NCBI RefSeq assembly: GCF_035084215.1
Contig: NC_090354.1
Span: 19,034,001-19,098,000 of the forward strand
Origin: Heptranchias perlo
Lineage: Eukaryota
Direction of reading: 5' to 3'
DNA length: 64,000 nucleotides
Shown one piece after another: positions 41,777 to 56,748 of this stretch. The position numbers were made by a program, and so were the translations under genes. A model generated the notes under the pieces. It did no database searches. It was not told the DNA's origin and saw nothing but the letters and a program-made list of their open reading frames with translations. How positions within the stretch are numbered: the first letter of the stretch is position 1; each line of letters opens with the position of its first letter.

Positions 41777-42986
41777 ATTATATATAATTTCTATACACTT
41801 CTTGAATATATAAATCAACAAAGACACCACACATTCTCTCTATAAACAAGGATCTTAAAAATAGGTTTCTTGCCATAAATGCATTCCCTGGCTAGGTTGG
41901 AACTGATTTTTAAAATACAAACAGCTCTCTGATTGTTGTCTGTGAGATTCACACAGTGACTGCTCTCTGAAGACTGACTGTGGCCTGCCAGTATCATTCT
42001 GTAGGAGGAGGCCTCTGGCCACTCATTGACCAGATCCCTCTGTGATGGACAATCAATGTGCCCTGTCCCCTTATCAAAAGGTCGAAGAAACAGCTGACAA
42101 TCAAAGTCATTGCCCCAGGCTGGGCCTATCTTTGATCTGTGACGAGGTGGCTTATGAACACCCTCACTGAGAGTGGAATAAAACAACAAATTACGTATCT
42201 CTCATTAATACATTAGAACAAGAGCCATTCTTCAATGCTGGAAAATACTCCTTGGTAATGGCAAAGATGCTGGTCATTGAATGGAAATGCTCCAGACAAT
42301 TGCCATGTGGCATTTATATTATCCTCAGTCTTAACGGTTTGCACTCATGAAGAACACTTTAGTCAACTCAGCTGGAACCAAACAGATGTTTTTCTCATTC
42401 TGCTTTAATCAGCATGATTCCAGCGATACAAAATATAACTTAACTAAAGGCACTTGTCACAAGAACAAATAGAGATGATTAAATATTGTGCGGAACATAA
42501 TGTTCCTGAACTCGAGACTTATAAATGCCATGTCTAGGAAATTAGTTAAGGAAGAATAATGCATCTTTTTGCATCTACTACATCTATATTTTACCTTCAA
42601 TACAGGTATAACCAAATAAAGGATAGCTTAGTTATTTTTCTGACCTGGAAGCCAAGACCTTCTAACAAGATCACTATTTAAATTACATTTTAGAACAGTG
42701 TTGTGGGGGGGGGTGCGGGGGCTACGCTGCCCCTTTAAAATACTCATGACTGTAAGACTTACTGTTACATTTTAAACAATGTTCCACAAGGTTATTTTTC
42801 CAATAGCTTTTGAGAATTTTACCGTGGTACAATTGGAAATATTGCGATAATGGTGAAAAAGATAATAGATGTTAAACATTTCAGTAAAAATAAGTGAAAT
42901 ATAAAATTATAGCTTTACATCATATCTGGCAGTCATTTTCCTCTCGGTTCTACAATTCTGTTTGAACAGGACGGAATAATTCTTAC

Positions 42987-43137
42987 CAGCTTCACCCCAG
43001 ACTGGCAAGTAGTCATCCTGCTGAATGTCCAACATAATCTCGAGGCCGTTGCCAGTCCCACCCTGCACGGTGGTCAGTAGAGGCTTGTCATCACTTCCTG
43101 AGTTAAACATGTAGCACTTCCCATATCTGGTAAAAAC
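42987..43137 (-). CDS. asic2: Internal coding exon (151 bp, exon 2 equivalent) of acid-sensing ion channel 2
   Basis: Acceptor ttcatgtag|GTT and donor GCTG|gtaag. Translation [57 protein letters not shown] and KPLLTTV match ASIC2 better than ASIC1 (CYTFNSG..RPRLKTM). Confidence 0.93.
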
Positions 43138-45134: not shown

Positions 45135-45500
45135 GACTCTGGGTAAATGGACTGACCAGTTTGGTAGTGAGTCCATACATAACTGGTAGATTCCAAGATC
45201 AATCCCTGCTCTGTGTTCAGCCAGAGTTCTGAAAAGGGCACTCAGTGCCCTCAAACTAGAGTGGAAAGAAATCAGCCAGGGTTACTGCTCTTGATCACTA
45301 TTCTGCTGGAAAGTGCATGTTTGTGGCTACCAGGTGAAGATAGGATTGAGTTCAGTTGTGATGCCCCTGCAGTCAAATATCTTGCTTTTAGGCTTTTACT
45401 GTCTGGGCTCACATGAGGAATAGCCACTTTGATGAGGTATCAGAATACAGTGAGCAGCTGTGGAACTGTACCCCAGCAAGAGTCAATACCTTTGGGATAG
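45135..45500 (+). mobile_element. Old SINE-like dispersed repeat
   Basis: Collinear with 21995-22325. Confidence 0.5.
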
Positions 45501-46637
45501 AAGAGTGGAATATTTGAAAAAGAGTTAAAACTTTTATATTGCATAGAATCACATAGAAATTACAAGATAGAATTCGAAACAACTATTCAATATATTTTAC
45601 CCGAACTTTAGTACTGCTCCCAAGGATTGATCTCTATTAATTGAAAACATCTATGGATACTAGTCATAAAATATAAATTAATTCATTTATACAAACACTT
45701 TTGTATTAATACAGAACCTGTACTGTAAATGAGAACTGATACAGTGCACTCTGTATATCATGATTGATTTACATAGATTCCTCAATGATCACTATAACCA
45801 AATAGGGTGCAAAGCTACAGTGGTCTGCAGGGCAGCCTGGCATGGTCAGTACTGCACAAGTTCTAAAATACTGAAGAGGAAGATAGGCTGAGTAGCACTA
45901 AGGCTTTTACAAAGTTTATTGATCAGCTATTTAAAATATTGGTCAGTGCTGCTCAGCTGTTTAGAAATAGTGCTCCCGGCCATTTTTAACAGCTGTGCAG
46001 CGCTCGGCTGGCAGTGCTGCCCAACAGCCGAGAGCGGATCCACAGGGTGTCGTAGGGGTTGGCACTTTTTGATTTGGCATAGCGATCTTCTGGAACTTTT
46101 TGAACTGTAGGGAGTCCGGTACACCCGACAGAAAATGTGGGACATTAGGCGAAGCAGCAAATTTGCACAGCCCGATTCACTGGCACAGCCATTTCTGGAT
46201 TCTGAAAGGTTGGTTGCTTGATCGATGGCATTAGAACCAAAGTATTTGCTGTGTGTGTGTGTGTGTGTGTAATCAATTCCAAGTTTTGAAAGCAGAAACA
46301 ACGTTTAAACTGCAAATTTAAGGTTTGAAAATTGTGAACATTGTCTCGTTATGCAGTTTGTTTTGAAAATGTATTTAAATTAATTTCTTGATTTTCTGTG
46401 GCCTACGTTGTACTGACCAAATGTTGAGATTTTCAATTTCCCACAGAAGACAATGAAACATACTGATGAGCAAGTCGCTGGGGCTTTTAAGCTCTTTACT
46501 GCTTATTTGTTTACAGTGCCTGTGGGTAAAGTGCTGTTCAGCTTCTTTAAGATGTGGAGATGCCGGTGATGGACTGGGGTTGACAATTGTAAACAATTTT
46601 ACAACACCAAGTTATAGTCCAGCAATTTTATTTTAAA

Positions 46638-46676
46638 TTCACAAGCTTTCGGAGGCTTCCTCCTTCGTCAGGTGAA
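46638..46676 (-). ncRNA. Minimal type I hammerhead ribozyme motif (minus strand)
   Basis: Exact mirror copy of 46701-46739. Confidence 0.65.
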
Positions 46677-46700
46677 CGATGTGAAGCCTCCTTCACATCG

Positions 46701-46739
46701 TTCACCTGACGAAGGAGGAAGCCTCCGAAAGCTTGTGAA
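46701..46739 (+). ncRNA. Minimal type I hammerhead ribozyme motif (plus strand)
   Basis: ttcac-CTGACGA-a-ggagg/aag/cctcc-GAAA-gc-TT-gtgaa. Intact core, perfect stems I and II, and the palindrome aagctt in place of stem III. Confidence 0.7.
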
Positions 46740-47341
46740 TTTAAAATAAAATTGCTGGACTATAACTTGGTGTTGTAAAATTGTTTACAGCTTCTTTAAA
46801 GTGCTGGTAAGCACAGGGCAATGAAGTGTTTAAAAGCACCGAATAGCAGCTGATAAGGTGGGGGCTTAAACTCTAGTGGAGCCTCTGCTCTCGGCCAGCT
46901 GGCTCTCACCAACAGCAAGATGAAACCAGTTAATTTAACGACTGCAGCAAAATCCCTGTTCAATGTAGACTCTGCCAGATAGCTTAACTGCTCTATTGCT
47001 GAATTAATTCCAACTCAGTAATGAGCTCATTGTTACCTGGTTTATTCCATTTTCCTGCCTGGAAAACTGCCAAATCATTCTCTAAAAGCTCGTTAATGAG
47101 GCCTTAACACACAATAGCAGATTTTTCAAAAACAATTTTGCTGCAAATCTAATTCCCCGATTTTTGGATGGAAAATTGGGAGTAGTGCAGAAAAGGGGAG
47201 GGGGGGAACCCTGGTATTTTAACTTTTCTCAAAGATTTCAATCAGATTTAATATTTGTTGCCATCGCTGTTGGATGACAATAGAAAACATCTCCATTTAT
47301 AGCTTTGTACTGTAAATTTTTAAATATTACCCAGGTACTAT

Positions 47342-47884
47342 GGACTGATTTTGAACCATTTACCACTCCGATTTTGGTGGGACTGAAGTGATAACAAGAT
47401 CAAAATTGAAAAGATTTATCACCCCGCTGCCGCCCACATCCAGCCCACTCCCATTTTGGTCCAGGCCGGCATATAAGTGGCCAAAAGCTCCCGCCGGAAG
47501 CAGAAGCAGCTTTACCTGGGTGCTCCGAAGGCATTAACGGTAAGTTTATTTAAAAGTCAATGTTCCTCCTGGCCCCACAAAAATCGTCCCATCCACTGCT
47601 GGACCCTCCGCGCCCCCGCGCCCCCCTCCACTGCAATGGCTTCCTGCCCTTTCATCAGAAACAGCTCGACTCGGCTCCGCGGAGGAACCACCAGATTTCC
47701 GCCTCCCCCAACCCGCACCTCCACTCCAGTGAACAGCCGGTCAGTGCCCCAAACACACAAGCTACTCGCCATGAATATTAAAACGAGGCCCGGCCATGAA
47801 AATGGTTCAATTTTATCCGATGGGCGTTGGGCTCGCTCCATCAACCTCCCTTTCGATGAAAGGGATCACATGAAAATCAACTCC
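47342..47884. mobile_element. GC-rich MITE-like element
   Basis: Imperfect termini ggactgatttt / aaaatcaactcc. Contains ggtaagt and the core tcctcctggccccacaa shared with 34522-35075. Confidence 0.6.
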
Positions 47885-49827: not shown

Positions 49828-51159
49828 TGAATCATCTGATCCCATGTTCTCCTCTAATTTAAAATCAATTATAGGTACTGTTCTAGGAGGTGATGTGTTG
49901 ATGATGAGGAGCTGGTAATAAGGTCTATCACACAGTCATCAGGAGCATTAACTGATAATGTACAAATAGGCAAAAGTGTTAGTAATGCAGAGGAAGGACT
50001 AAACAAACTTAAATTCAGATACGTGGGACAGTACAGAGCCAAAATAGGCCAGGACAGTTCTTGAGCAGGACAGACAGAACTGCAACAATGGGCCCAAGCA
50101 CTTGCAGGGTTTTGTAGGTATAACAGGATTATCTTAATTTTAGTTAAGCCATAACAAATAGGTGTATACTCCACTGCTGGATTAAGTTACGTAGCTTGTT
50201 AGCTGCATCAGAAGTATTAAAGGATCATTGGTGGTTTGCGTTTGGAGCATTGTGGTTAATAGCTTCCTGTTATCACTAAAAAAAATCTTGTTCTCAGGAA
50301 GTGCACGTGTGCATTCCCACAAGTGTTTTGGCGAGATAGGTCCTAACTTATTTATTGTTTTTCCTCCTCCTTAGTAATTATCTAATTACAGTTAGTTTCC
50401 TGTCTTACTGATTATGTAATTATAGTTCGAGACCAAACTGATCAGTCCATTTGTAACATTTTTACTGGAGCTGTGAACATAACATTCACAAATTGGGATT
50501 TTTTTTTATATAATTATCCTAAAATCAGCAGCACTAAAATCCATACTGGCAGACTTTATGGATACCTTAAACCAAATTGAGCAAAGGTTGAAATATAGGT
50601 GGCCTTGAGTTTAATGAGTTTCCTTAATTTCTCAGCACATCATAGGCAGTAGTCAATGCATCCATTACTATTTCATTTGAGTTTTAACAGTGGATACATC
50701 CTCAGAGTATTTAATTACATACTGCTCTCATTGTATGAATAAAGTTATTGTAATAGACACTGACCATAAAAATCGCTGCAAATTATTTCTTGATAAACCT
50801 ACAGTACAGGTATCACATGTGTTAATCTCTTGGCATGAATGCTGCTCTGCATCAAAGGCAGGGAATATGCCTGCAATCAGCGTCAATGTTGACAGTTGCT
50901 GTCAATGGAAGAACGTTACCAGAACTGAATAAAACCAACCAATGAATAGAACAGTATATATTATAAAAATAACAGACACCATTGAGTGATTTCAAGACAG
51001 TTATTTACTCAGGGTTCGGATGATAGTTTTAAACCATTCAAGACGTGTGTGAATTGTAATATCATCCAAATCCCAGAATCCCTTGTAATTACAGCTATGC
51101 TGATTATTCTGTTGCACAGTGTAGCAAATACTGTAGCACTAAGGCTACTGTATACCTTC

Positions 51160-54100
51160 AGCTCCTATAGGGGATTCAATAGTTAGAGGAACAAACAGGC
51201 ATTTCTGCATCCATAGATGTGATTCCAGGATGGTATGTTGCCTTCCTGGTGCCAGGGTCAAGGATGTCGCTGAGCGGCTGCAGAACATTCTGGAGGAGAA
51301 GGGTGAACAGCCAGAGGTCGGAGTCCATATTGGTACCAACAACATAGGTAGAATGAGGGATGAGGTCCTATAGGCAGATTTTAAGGAGTTAGGAGAGAGA
51401 TTAACAAGCAGGACCTCAAAGGTAGTAATCTCCGGATTACTCCCGGTGCCACGCGCTGGCGAGTATAGAAATAGGAGGATAGAGCAGATGAATGCATGGC
51501 TGGTGAGATGATGCAGGAGGGAGGGATTTAGATTCCTGGGGCATTGGGACCAGTTCTGGGGGAGGTGGGACCTGTACGGGGATTGCACCTCAACAGAGCT
51601 GGGAACAATGTCCTCGCGGGGAGGTTCGCTAGTACTGTAGGGCGGGGGGTTAAACTAATTTGGCAGGTGGATGGACGCCAGGATGTAGCATTGGAAAGAA
51701 GAAACAAGGTGCACAAAGGATTGGGAGAGAAAGATAGCACTAGAATAAGAAATGGTACAGTATTAGGTGGGATCAGACTAAGAGAGAGTACAAGAAAGTC
51801 TAAGATTGGTTTACAGTGCGTGTGTGTAAATGCACGAAGCGTGGTAAACAAGGTTGGTGAGCTGCAGGCACAAACAGCCACATGGGACTATGACGTTGTA
51901 GCGGTAAAGGAGACCTGGCTCAAAAAAGGGCAGGATTGGGTACTAAATATCCCTGGATACAAGATGTCCAGGAAAGATAGGGAAGGAAAGAAAGTGGGGG
52001 GGGGGGGGGTTGCGGTGGCAGTATTGATTAAGGAGAATGTTGCAGTGCTGGAGAAAAAGAACATCCTGGAGGGGTAAACGACAGAATCTATTTGGTTAGA
52101 GTTAAGAAACAAAAGAGGTGTCATTACACTACTAGGTGTATTCTATAAGCCACCAACTAGTGGGAAAGATATAGAGGAGCAAATTTGCTGAGAAATTACA
52201 GAGAGGTGCAAAAGCCATCAAGCATTGATAATGGGGGACTTCAACTATCCTAATATAGACTGAGATAGTAATAATATAAGGGGCAAAGAGGGGGAAGAAT
52301 TTCTGAAGTGTGTTCAGGAGAACTTTCTTGACCAGTATGTTCCCAGCCCAACAAGGGAGGAGGCATTGCTGGATTTGGTTCTGGGGAATGGGGCGGGCCA
52401 AGTTTTGCAAGTGTCAGTTGGGGAACATTTAGGGAACAGCGATCATAGTATCAAAAGGTTTTGAATAGCTATGGAAAAGGACAAGGACCACTCTAAAGTA
52501 AAAATACTCAATTGGAGGAGGGCCAATTTCAGTGGGATGAGAACAGATCTAGCCCGGGTAAATTGGAATCAAAGATTGGCAAACAAAACTGTAAGTGAAC
52601 AATGGGCGGCCTTTAAGGAGCAGATGGTTCGGGTACAGTTTAGGTACATTCACACGAGGGAGAAAGATAAGGCAACTAAAGCCAGAGCTCCTTGGATGAC
52701 AAAAGAGATAGAGAGTAAGATGAAGCAGAAAAAAGGGGCATAAGACAGATGTCAGGTTAATAACAGAAGTGAGAACCAGGCTGAATATAGAAAGTTCAGA
52801 GGGGAAGTAAAAAAGGAAATAAGAGGGGCAAAGAAAGAGTATGAGAATAGATGGCGGCCAACATAAAAGGGAATCCAAAAGTCTTCTATAGGCATGTAAA
52901 CAGTAATCGGGTAGTAAGAGGAGGGGTGGGGCCGATTAAGGACCAAAAAGGAGATCTACTCATGGAGGCAGAGGGCATGGCTTTTGTACTAAATGAGTAC
53001 TTTGCATCTGTCTTTACCAAGGAAGAAGATGCTGCCAGAGTCTCAGTAAAGGAAGATGTAGTTGAGATACTGGATGGACTAAAAATTGATAAAGGAGGTA
53101 CTAGAAAGGCTAGCTGGACTTAAAGTAGATAAGTCACCCGTTCCGGATGGGATGCATCCTAGATTGCTGAGGGAAGTAAAGGTGGAAATTGCGGCGCTAC
53201 TGGCCATAATCTTCCAAACATCTTTAGATACCGGGGTGGTGCCAGAGGACTGGAGAATTGCAAATGTTACACCCTTGTTCAAAAAAGGGTGCAAGAATAA
53301 ACCCAGAAACTACAGGCCTGTCAGTTTAACCTGTGGTGGGGAAACTTTTACAAATGATAATCCGGGACAGAATTAGCGGTCACTTGGACAAGTGTGGATT
53401 GATTAGGGAAAGCCAGCATGGATTTGTTAAAGGCAAAATCATGTTTAACTAATTTGATAGAGTTTTTTGATGAGGTAGCAGAGAGGGTCAATGAGGGCAA
53501 TGCAGTTGATGTGGTGTATATGGACTTTCAAAAGGTGTTTGATAAAGTACCGCATAATAGGCTTGTCATAGGATTGAAGCCCATGGAATAAAAGGGGCAG
53601 TAGCAACATGGATACAGAACTGGCTAAGCAACAGGAAACAGAGAGTAGTCGTGAACAGTTGTTTTTTAGACTTGAGGGAGGTGTACAGAGGTGTTCCCCA
53701 CAATTCGGTACGAGGACCACTGCTTTTCTTGATATATATTAATGACTTGGACTTGGTTGTATAGGACACAATTTCCAAATTTGCAGATGACACAAAACTT
53801 GGTACTGTAGTGAACAGTGAGGAGGGTAGTGATAGACTTCAAGAGGATATAGACAGGCAGGTGGCATGGGGGTCACTTGGCAGATGAAATTTAACGCAGA
53901 AAAATGCGAAGTGATACATTTTGATAGGGAGAACAAGGAGAGGCAATATAAACTAAACGGCACAATTCTAAAAGGGGTACAAGAGTAGAGAGATCTGGGG
54001 GTATGTGTACACAAATCATTGAAGGTGGCAGGGCAGGTTGAGACAGTGGTTAAAAAAGCATACGGGATCCTGGGCTTCAAAAATAGAAGTATAGAGTACA

Positions 54101-56748
54101 AAAGCAAGGAAGTCATGATGAACCTTTATAAAACACTGTTTGGCCACAGCTGGAGTATTGTGTCCAGTTCTGGGCACCACAGTTTAGGAAGGATGTGAAG
54201 CCCTTAGTGAGGGTGCAGAAGAGATTTACTAGAATGATTCCAGGGATGACAGACTTCAGTTACATGGAAACACTGGAGAAGCTGGGATTGTTCCCCTTGG
54301 AACAGAGAAGGTTGAGAGGAGAGTTGATAAAGGTATTCAAAATCATGAAGGGTCTAGACAGAAGTAGATAGAGAGAAATTGTTCCCATTGGCAGAAGGGT
54401 CAAGAACCAGAGGACATAGATTTAAGGTGATTGGCAAAAGAACCAAAGGTGACATGAGGAAAAGCTTTTTTACACAACGACTGGTTAGGATCTGGAATGC
54501 ACTGCCCGAGGGAGTGGTGGATATTCAATTGGTGGACATACCATCCGTGGCTAACTAAGGAAGTTAAAGATAGTATCAAATTGAAAGAAAAAGCTTACAA
54601 TTCCGCGAAGATTAGTGGCAGGTCAGAAGATTGAACAGAATATAAAAGAACAGCAAAATATGACTAAAAGAATAATGAGGGAGAAACTAGAGTACGAGAG
54701 AAAGCCAGCTAGAAATATATAAACAGATGGTAAGAGTTTCTACAGGTATTTAAGAAGGAAAAGAGTAAGCAAAGTGAGCATTGGTCCTCTAGAGAGTGAG
54801 CCTGGGGAATTAATAATGGAGAATAAGGAAATGGCGAATGAATTGGAGAGACATTTAGCATCCAACTTCACTGTAGAAGATACAAATAACATACCAGAAA
54901 TATTGTGAATCAAGAGGTAAAAGGGAGGGAGGAACTTAAAACATTTACAATCACCAGGGAAGGTGTTTTGAAAAAAATATTAGAACTACAAGCTGACAAG
55001 TCCCCAGGTCCTGATGGACTTCATCCTGGGGTCTTAAAAGAAGTGGCTGCAGAGATAGTAGATGCTTTGGTATTAATTTTCCAAAATTCCCTAGATTCTG
55101 GAAGGGTCCCATCAGATTGGAAAATAGCGAATGTAACTCCTCTATTCAAGAAAGGCAGGAGACAGAAAGCAGGAAATTACAGGCCAGTTAGCTTAACATC
55201 TGTCATAGGGCAAATGCTAGAATCTATTATTAAGGGCACTTGGAAATCTCAATGCAATCAGGCAAAGTCAACACACCTTTGTGAAAGGGAAATCATGTTT
55301 GACTAATTTATTAGAGTTCTTTGAGGAAGTAACAAGCAACGTGGATAAAGGGGATCCTGTGGATGTGGTGTACTTGGATTTCCAGAAGGCTTTTGACAAG
55401 GTGCCACATCAAAGGCTACTACTCAAAATAAGTGCTCATGTGTAGGGGGTAACATATTAGTATGGATAAAGGATTGGTTAGCTAACAGAAAGAGAGTAGG
55501 CATAAATGGGTCATTTTCAGGTTGATAAGATGTAATGAGTGGAATGCCACAGGGATCAGTGCTTGGGCCTCAACTATTTACAATCGATATCAATGACTTG
55601 GATGAAGGGACCGAACGTATGGTTGCTAAATTTGCTGATGACACAAAGGTAGGTAGGAAAGTAAGTTGTGAAGAGGACATAAGGAATCTGCAAAAGGATA
55701 CAGATAGGTTAAGTGAGTGGGCAAAAATTTGGCAGATGGAGTATAATGTGAGAAAATGTGAACTTGTCCACTTCGGCAGGAGGAATAGAAAAGCAGTATA
55801 TTATTTAAATGGAGAGAGATTGCAGAACTCTGAGGTACAGGGGGATCTGGGCGTCCTAGTACATGAATCACAAAAAGTTAGTATGCATGTACAGCAAGTG
55901 ATTAGGAAGGCAAATGGAATGTTGTCATTTATTGCAAGGGGAATGGAACATAAAAGTAGAGATGTTTTGCTACAGTTATACAGGGCATTGGTGAGACCAC
56001 ATCTAGAATACTGTGTGTAGTTTTGGTCTCCTTATTTAAGAAAGGACATAATTACTTTGGAGGCAGTTCAGAGAAGGTTCACTCGACTGATTCCTGGGAT
56101 GAGGGGGTTATCTTAAAAGGAAAGGTTGGACAAGTTGGGCCTGTGTACAATGGAGTTTAGAAGAATGAGAGGTGATCTTATTGAAACATATAAGATCCTG
56201 AGGGGACTAGAAGGGATAGATGCTGAGAGGATGTTTCCCCTTGTGGGAGAGACTAGAACTAGGGCCACAGTTAAAAATAAGGGATCGCCCATTTAACACG
56301 GAGCCGAGGAGAAATTTTTTCTTTCAGACGGTCTTGAGTCTGTGGAACTCCCTTCCCCAGAGAGCGGTGGAGGCAGGGTCATTGAATATTTTTTAAGGCT
56401 GCGTTAGATAGATTCCTGATTATCAAGGGAGTCAAAGATTATAGTAGGTAGACGGAAAAATAGGGTTGAGGTCACAATCAGATCACGATCTTATCAAATG
56501 GCAGAGCAGGCTCGAGGGGCCGAATGGCCTACTCCTGCTCTTAATTCGTACGTTCGTATGTATGGAAGCAGATTCAATTGTGGCTTTCAAAAGGGAACTG
56601 GATAAGTACTTGAAAGGAAAAAAATTGCAAGGCTACGGGGATAGGAAGGGGGAGTGGGACTAGCTGGATTGCTCTTGCATAGAGCTGGCACGGACTCAAT
56701 GGGCCGAGTGGCCTCCTTCCACGCTGTAACCTTTCCATGATTCTATGT
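51160..56748 (+). mobile_element. Near full-length CR1 LINE (ORF1 SGNH-esterase relic plus ORF2 EN-RT), inactivated and interrupted by a second CR1
   Basis: ORF1 motifs GDSIVRG, CLPGARVKDV, HIGTNN and GLHLN (51160-51665). ORF2 motifs NARSVVNKVGEL, ETWL, GDFN, SDH, SPVPDGMHPRLL and FADDTK, with many stops. The 3' end resumes at about 56562 and ends ccatgattctatg. Confidence 0.93.
54532..56561 (+). mobile_element. 5'-truncated CR1 nested in the 3' end of the host CR1
   Basis: Second RT (ORFs 54905-55306 and 55535-56020) with its own 3'UTR ggcctactcctgctc and degenerate tail ttcgtacgttcgtatg. Confidence 0.9.

Follow-up and report, generated by a model that had tools for sequence, protein, structure and literature searches.

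Background

The combination of an inverted pLTR, a one-sided tail and a target duplication is an already published layout for Penelope-like elements (PLEs) (PMC3846280, PMC8557442; these papers and the others below are cited for the parts of their text that were accessible), and the inverted pLTR has been explained there by self-priming on an antisense template (PMC3846280). A PLE protein studied in vitro nicked and extended both target strands, and used an uncleaved RNA on which two internal RT starts bracket the tail (PMC11167929). For the hammerhead motifs that accompany such elements, pairs on opposite strands and 100-700 bp apart have been described in Schistosoma (PMC4209133). Our literature search returned no paper that treats the PLE mechanism by way of twin priming or inversion in its title or abstract, and listed no paper on shark PLEs with hammerheads; the model or the family may nevertheless be in print in journals behind a subscription, among them Arkhipova (2006) and Evgen'ev and Arkhipova (2005), or in Repbase and Dfam.

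Results and discussion

A palindromic insertion within an ASIC2-like gene

The window, i.e. the whole stretch of 64 kb of Heptranchias perlo DNA that was analysed, contains a single perfect inverted repeat of at least 14 bp with a loop below 30 nt. This palindrome, from here on called the stub, consists of two arms of 99 nt (46588-46686 and 46691-46789) that are 100% complementary around a 4-nt loop, and its fold has a z-score of -28 with respect to 200 shuffles. It is enclosed by an exact 12-bp direct repeat (46539-46550 = 46788-46799), the right copy of which shares 2 nt with the end of the right palindrome arm. The left arm outruns the palindrome by 37 bp (46551-46587), which are element sequence and correspond to the 'tail' of PLEs, and the minus-strand reading of left arm and tail together yields a unit of 136 nt. 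The initial annotation had described the mismatch-free arms, the loop and the direct repeat, and had pointed to the inverted truncated copies of Penelope-like insertions; all of this was recovered, the truncated copy being the short arm and the direct repeat a target duplication. The features of the locus are the following:

42985..43137 (approximate), minus strand: exon (coding) of the ASIC2-like host gene, located 3.4 kb downstream of the stub in transcript order
46539..46550, plus strand: left copy of the target-site duplication, 12 bp, exact repeat (12 bp is the modal length, in 25 of 43 pairs)
46551..46685, minus strand: long arm, leader 2-136 of a Penelope-like element as judged from its sequence, stopping just before the parent ATG (in L061 and L206 the parent ORF starts with the base that follows)
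46551..46587, minus strand: 37-bp 'tail', leader 100-136, in the long arm only, between two putative RT start sites (from the bimodal arm 3' ends; PMC3846280, PMC11167929)
46638..46676, minus strand: minimal type-I hammerhead motif of the long arm, on the sense strand of the host gene, predicted cut after 46643
46686..46691, plus strand: 6-nt junction filler, apparently templated from hammerhead stem II by a putative joining route; its central 4 nt are the loop
46692..46789, plus strand: short inverted arm, leader 2-99, the last 2 nt common to the target duplication
46701..46739, plus strand: minimal type-I hammerhead motif of the short arm, predicted cut after 46734
46788..46799, plus strand: right copy of the target-site duplication, 12 bp

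The best PDB match of the exon at about 42985-43137 was ASIC2 (E 3e-27; ASIC1, 7e-25), and since exons of the same channel family flank the stub on both sides and on the same (minus) strand, the stub lies within a large intron of an ASIC2-like gene. The location 3.4 kb upstream of an asic2 exon that had been assigned before is therefore right in its distance to an ASIC2-like exon and is corrected to an intronic one. The first exons of the host lie ~180 kb and 730 kb upstream. ASIC genes have a/b isoforms, a pattern that is resembled by two first exons of the host that are candidate alternatives to each other, ~550 kb apart (G000:C33:19,256,524-19,257,039 and 19,808,474-19,808,977). Elsewhere in the window (51143-54125), fragmented endonuclease/RT-like frames were seen that, judged by eye, probably belong to a CR1-type LINE copy.

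Three sequencing runs of one sample, which is probably the assembly's own and hence not independent, gave short-read contigs that reach into the stub from either flank, up to 46571 on the left and starting at 46765-46766 on the right; both flank junctions are thereby supported, and so is an opposite orientation for the two arms. The initial annotation had made its reading depend on raw-read support for the palindrome, and this support extends to the two junctions and the arm orientation and stops short of the centre, which none of the contigs listed for the three runs crosses. The unspanned centre is what one would see if a fold-back chimera of a long read had created the palindrome during assembly; yet both flank junctions are backed in three runs of the sample, the arms, flanked by an exact duplication of 12 bp, are unequal in length, and the same rule is obeyed by thousands of loci; we give an assembly artefact practically no chance. 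The contigs are unbranched at the insertion point, which suggests that the stub is homozygous in the sequenced individual; no empty-site joint occurred among the joints listed, with 157 further ones standing outside the list, and run X10 covers the repeat alone. At 46875, 76 bp to the right of the insertion, the contig of one run has C instead of A, possibly a heterozygous site.

Relation to an autonomous Penelope-like element

A first genome search with the 136-nt unit gave 40 scored candidates, all of them 99-100% identical, and led to tandem elements of 3.08 kb in which the base after leader position 136 is the ATG of an ORF of 902 aa. The tandem period is 3,081-3,084 bp in four loci (L061-L064) and 3,069 bp in a fifth (L206), so that tandem or partial-tandem copies form pLTRs, as they do in endonuclease-bearing (EN+) PLEs. 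The single ORF likewise combines an RT with a C-terminal GIY-YIG endonuclease: its translation matched RVT_1 (E 3e-10) and GIY-YIG (E 6e-4; at 20.6 bits just below the Pfam cut-off of 22.6), and the first matches in the ESM Atlas scored 0.98, with RVT_1/GIY-YIG clusters. It also contains the DKG motif and, between the VYL and YIG motifs, two Cys, together with two His that were judged by eye and unaligned, in line with the endonuclease features of EN+ PLEs (as far as the definitions accessible in PMC8557442 go), and the C-x4-C-x2-C linker upstream of the GIY-YIG core agrees with the CX2-5CxxC RT-EN linker that the same source defines for the Neptune clade and that is shared with Nematis. On these sequence features the parent is an endonuclease-bearing PLE, probably of Neptune type, and the stub is by its sequence the ribozyme-bearing 5' leader (pLTR) of this autonomous element. 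The affinity to Penelope that had been suspected from the stub was thus confirmed by the ORF with RT and GIY-YIG domains that the search for a parent brought up.

The state of the ORF in the subfamily of the stub was judged from five loci. The leader of this subfamily fronts a stop-free ORF of 902 aa in L206, 98% identical to the first parent protein, and an open frame of 893 aa in L207, while the other three loci have one frame of 865 aa and two that are broken or partial. At least two subfamilies with near-identical proteins (98% aa) co-exist, which differ mainly around the hammerhead and the TATA region; within leader 11-49 (L069-L165) the differences concern N7, loop II and pairing-preserving stem sites. 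Some long frames near these elements had no match to the Penelope protein and probably belong to other repeats, namely L209:4825-6999 (-) and L210:3890-6856 (+), of 725 aa and 989 aa, and several overlapping ones in L206:3-3673 (+).

Abundance of head-to-head stubs

Genome-wide, exact matches to a 34-mer of the leader number 46,566 and those to the hammerhead variant of the stub 11,237, and 3,846 pairs of cores stand head-to-head within 14 bp of each other. Among the first 100 leader matches, 19 head-to-head pairs (38 matches) and no tail-to-tail pairs were found within 300 bp. The stub is therefore ordinary in kind, one of thousands of similar head-to-head stubs. Identical arms, from which a very recent insertion had been deduced, are no distinguishing mark either, because they were also found over at least 90 bp in 12 of 43 sampled pairs. 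The centres, on the other hand, differ from locus to locus: that of the stub was not found again among the 40 scored of 152 candidates, for which the next best full-length match was 90%. As each palindrome has its own centre, the stub was likely made at insertion rather than copied as a unit.

These observations bear on the proposal of the initial annotation that the stub may belong to an active non-autonomous ribozyme-bearing family, considered here as a retrozyme-like or MITE-like unit that would be transcribed and copied as a palindrome. Stubs are indeed very numerous, and one locus (L065) holds an ORF-less tandem array of ten hammerhead units of 404 bp in a retrozyme-like layout. Against this, the sequence of the stub is a plain sub-sequence of the leader of autonomous elements with intact ORFs, its centre was unseen again among the 40 scored candidates and centres vary between loci, and it has neither a TATA motif nor a tandem repeat. 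The same internal structure with the same ends at many loci with different flanks, as in MITE- or SINE-like families, was not seen among the 40 scored of 152 candidates. The reading as a non-autonomous unit is largely refuted and in our estimate highly improbable. The array in L065 (G000:C2:21,272,900-21,276,700) consists of ten head-to-tail units that are nearly 100% identical, each made up of the leader with its hammerhead and the first 128 nt of the ORF; the tandem hammerheads could dimerise, as far as can be predicted.

Arm ends in the family

Arm ends were compared for loci sampled within the initial 33 Mb of a single contig, where the collection of 43 pairs mixes two anchorings. One long arm (ending at leader 130-150) was combined with one short arm (94-110) in 40 of the 43 pairs, and the others were one short+short pair and two of different make-up; when two duplicates were removed and an arm ending at 92 was taken as short, 39 of 41 pairs were long+short (p 8e-10 against 0.5). 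The 3' ends of single arms are bimodal, with 52 of 100 at 96-107, 43 at 133-147 and 5 that continue into the ORF (50, 38 and 4 of 92 after removal of duplicates). The arms of the stub end at leader 136 (long) and 99 (short). The target duplication measures at least 9 bp in 42 of 43 pairs and exactly 12 bp in 25, and the 12-bp duplications are 72% AT. Solo short arms also exist, each with its own duplication.

At the other side, 42 of 92 de-duplicated arms have their 5' end at -6..+11, and both arms of the stub end at leader position 2, which is 31-32 nt below the TATAAA motif. For arms ending between -15 and +11, the median distance from TATAAA to the 5' end is 30 in both subfamilies; 27 of 60 arms in the subfamily of the stub end at 29-31 nt, and in the other subfamily, in which the motif is placed 6-7 nt differently, the mode is also 30 (6/22). 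A Mann-Whitney test of the corresponding shift in 5' ends between the subfamilies fell short of significance (p 0.16 with all arms, 0.12 with non-palindromic joins), and the 5' ends of the other subfamily could be biased by its self-complementary letters near +6. In another 25 of the 92 arms the 5' end lies far upstream, reaching -141 or beyond, so that read-through templates are used as well. A sharp 5' end at leader 1, which had come out of the first search and had suggested a defined element of 136 nt, was dropped after a re-test on the first 100 pattern matches; it is partly an effect of ranking, given that T is the usual base of the parent at that position.

The genomic 5' ends were also considered as marks of ribozyme cleavage, which we reject for the bulk of the copies since most arms (41,749 of 46,566, ~90%) read through the cut site. 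No sharp step in the 5' ends was seen there, with 0.94, 0.55 and 0.38% lost per nt over positions 55-49, 49-44 and 44-38. The true 5' ends at 43-52, adjoining the cut site, in 7 of 100 sampled arms may reflect a minority of cleaved templates, up to ~3-8%.

A proposal for the formation of the stubs

We think it likely that the stub is a dead-end insertion of the leader, in which a long and a short copy were placed head-to-head within a 12-bp duplication by RT primed from both cut strands. In this proposal, the GIY-YIG endonuclease would cut AT-rich DNA with a stagger of ~12 nt, after which the two DNA strands would prime at different fixed positions inside a single uncleaved mRNA, close to the ATG (leader 136) for one strand and ~37 nt upstream of it (~100) for the other. 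Both cDNAs would then run off the 5' end of the RNA, ~30 nt below the TATA motif, and the two cDNA ends would be joined by microhomology. The run-off at the transcription start is deduced from the genomic arm ends and their distance to the TATA motif. At the stub, the top strand would have been extended by copying leader 31-36 and the bottom strand by copying leader 24-28 (stem II), upon which the two short extensions would have annealed via 5 complementary bases to leave the 6-nt filler; the corresponding matches are those of the top strand at 46683-46691 to leader 28-36 (the chance of such a 9-mer being ~0.001) and of the bottom strand at 46687-46694 to leader 21-28.

That the two arms come from two primings is favoured by the 13 of 43 pairs (counted by eye) in which the short arm extends at least 5 nt further 5' than the long one, an arrangement that is impossible by fold-back of the long cDNA. 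The alternative that is put at issue here is that one cDNA, or else a template of antisense RNA (PMC3846280, in the portion accessible), self-primes and is copied back as the inverted arm. Such a fold-back would readily account for the same variant in both arms in 48 of 50 pairs, self-complementary stretches of 3-5 nt within the hammerhead are used at many junctions, and the filler of the stub is itself a short extension of fold-back type. The 13 pairs nevertheless argue against it as a general route; moreover, the outer end of the short arm is fixed near 100, where solo arms also stop, and in several pairs both arms stop at an identical point with tens to hundreds of unrelated filler bases separating them. 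On balance we regard fold-back as unlikely. In a number of loci (L116, L118, L136, L083, L024), 40-200 nt of unrelated or flank-like DNA were found between the head-to-head arms, which suggests capture during end joining.

The use of one template is favoured by the arms sharing N7 in 48 of the 50 listed pairs, while 41,749 of 46,566 arms that read through the cut site favour a template that is uncleaved. It could instead be supposed that two different RNAs, dimerised via the palindromic hexamer of the hammerhead (AAGCUU), each served as template for one arm. The hexamer region is predicted to self-pair at -6.5 kcal/mol (dimer -29.7 vs 2 x -11.7 for the monomers), and N7 does differ between the arms in a minority of pairs, i.e. 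in 2 of the 50 listed pairs and in 4 of the 36 informative ones of the 43-pair sample (same in 32/36). For random partners, though, ~22 of 50 mixed pairs would be expected, an expectation that ignores both non-overlapping activity of the subfamilies and gene conversion from arm to arm, either of which makes arms alike; and no clear mix of major subfamilies occurs among the 43 pairs, with at most one among the 50 listed. We hold two partner RNAs to be improbable, where two RNAs from one locus would still look like one template. Since N7 differs in 4 of 36 pairs, some pairs need two templates or a later change.

Beyond the single insertion, we see an even chance that the stubs record the missing step of Penelope integration, in which one protein dimer would make the 12-nt cut and prime the same uncleaved mRNA twice (at the ATG and 37 nt upstream), followed by run-off and templated joining. 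If so, a single rule would explain the inverted pLTRs, the tail at one end and why tandem copies are needed, and it would require neither an antisense template nor ribozyme cleavage.

The hammerhead and its predicted state

Each strand of the stub carries one hammerhead core with its stem I, its stem II and the AAGCTT hexamer, and a motif search of the window gave no further matches of this kind. The intact minimal hammerhead with a palindromic stem III that had been noted on both strands is thereby substantiated; its cut was predicted at the same site as before, after 46734 (+), with the minus-strand counterpart after 46643. A conserved core with stems I and II paired corresponds to the minimal type-I hammerhead. 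No hammerhead family of Rfam was retrieved at E≤10 in 45500-47800, and the miRNA-hairpin matches that Rfam gave in the same interval were rejected as generic hairpin scores below the gathering thresholds. Within 81 arms, which are related copies and stand for few events rather than 81, the core is invariant except for N7 (11 C, 70 G) and one change of G12, and the stem pairs are kept in 78-81 arms, with a G-C/G-U/A-U series at pair 28-32. The near-invariant core and the pairing-preserving variation of the stems suggest selection on the hammerhead fold in the parent.

In the stub itself, the full insert is predicted to fold at -190 or -183 kcal/mol, with a pairing probability of the hammerhead stems below 1e-17 on both strands, also in transcripts that end just past the motif. 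The ribozymes are hence predicted to be locked in the 99-bp hairpin and inert, because in the head-to-head layout any read-through transcript of the host makes the antisense arm first; the silencing that the initial annotation had envisaged for such a transcript is what the folding prediction returns. The stub as a whole is probably inert, as both the TATA motif and the ORF are absent from it. Editing or dicing of its hairpin RNA is possible, and the thousands of near-perfect hairpins of 100 bp in introns form a putative genome-wide source of dsRNA. The locus itself matters little, being common, probably inert and intronic, whereas the family is a useful natural data set on the way in which inverted ends, and tails at one end only, arise in Penelope elements.

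Comparison with known systems

In LINE-1 twin priming, two primings from the two cut strands followed by microhomology joining give an inversion, and the segments are mostly non-overlapping parts of the RNA, the second site being variable. In the stub, by comparison, both arms copy the same leader from two fixed sites. Non-LTR retrozymes (bioRxiv 10.64898/2026.07.22.740005, in the part accessible) are, like the stub, ORF-less, hammerhead-bearing and derived from the pLTR of PLEs; they consist of at least two head-to-tail units that each carry a hammerhead, where the stub is a head-to-head pair without a tandem and, unlike retrozymes, has no sign of being copied as a unit. With the minimal hammerheads of metazoan PLEs (PMC4209133, from the portion at hand) the motif shares the type-I core, the extra base before stem II and the palindromic stem III region, and in contrast to these it is not scored by the Rfam models.

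The stub has all parts of an EN+ PLE insertion, i.e. an inverted 5'-truncated pLTR, a tail of 30-40 bp at one end (37 bp) and a duplication (12 bp). The head-to-head inverted pLTR with a one-end tail and a short duplication is also present in Pen2a_Av of Adineta (PMC3846280) and in the general scheme of EN+ PLEs (PMC8557442), and the available description of Pen2a_Av gives an inverted copy that is shorter by 37 bp, the same difference as in the stub (PMC3846280). A pLTR that reaches the start of the ORF, with a putative TATA/initiator, is common to EN+ PLE insertions and the family of the stub (PMC3846280, PMC8557442, as accessible), and for Penelope of Drosophila the available text gives a repeat of 34-37 bp and a start within the pLTR (PMC2377424). 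The differences from known EN+ PLE insertions, as far as these sources describe them, are that no ORF stands between the arms and that copies run into the thousands; in the family the duplication has a sharp length of 12 bp, against 8-10 bp in the Adineta examples, and the arm statistics disfavour the antisense self-priming set out for the latter (PMC3846280, in the part consulted).

A resemblance in mechanism concerns Poseidon PAc of Anolis (PMC11167929), which in the accessible text has AT-rich targets, use of both strands, starts that bracket the tail and an uncleaved main template in common with the family of the stub. It differs in that RT starts 111-118 nt inside the ORF, as opposed to putative starts at approximately -37 and 0 with respect to the ATG, and in that its hammerhead overlaps the ATG, whereas that of the family lies wholly in the leader; the CX4CxxC linker of Neptune/Nematis type in the parent protein is a further difference from PAc. 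An inverted arm is not part of the PAc model in the sections accessible, and sharp predictions for this in vitro system (PMC11167929) would come from the strict pairing of a long with a short arm, the stagger of 12 bp, the agreement of variants between arms and the TATA spacing of 30 nt.
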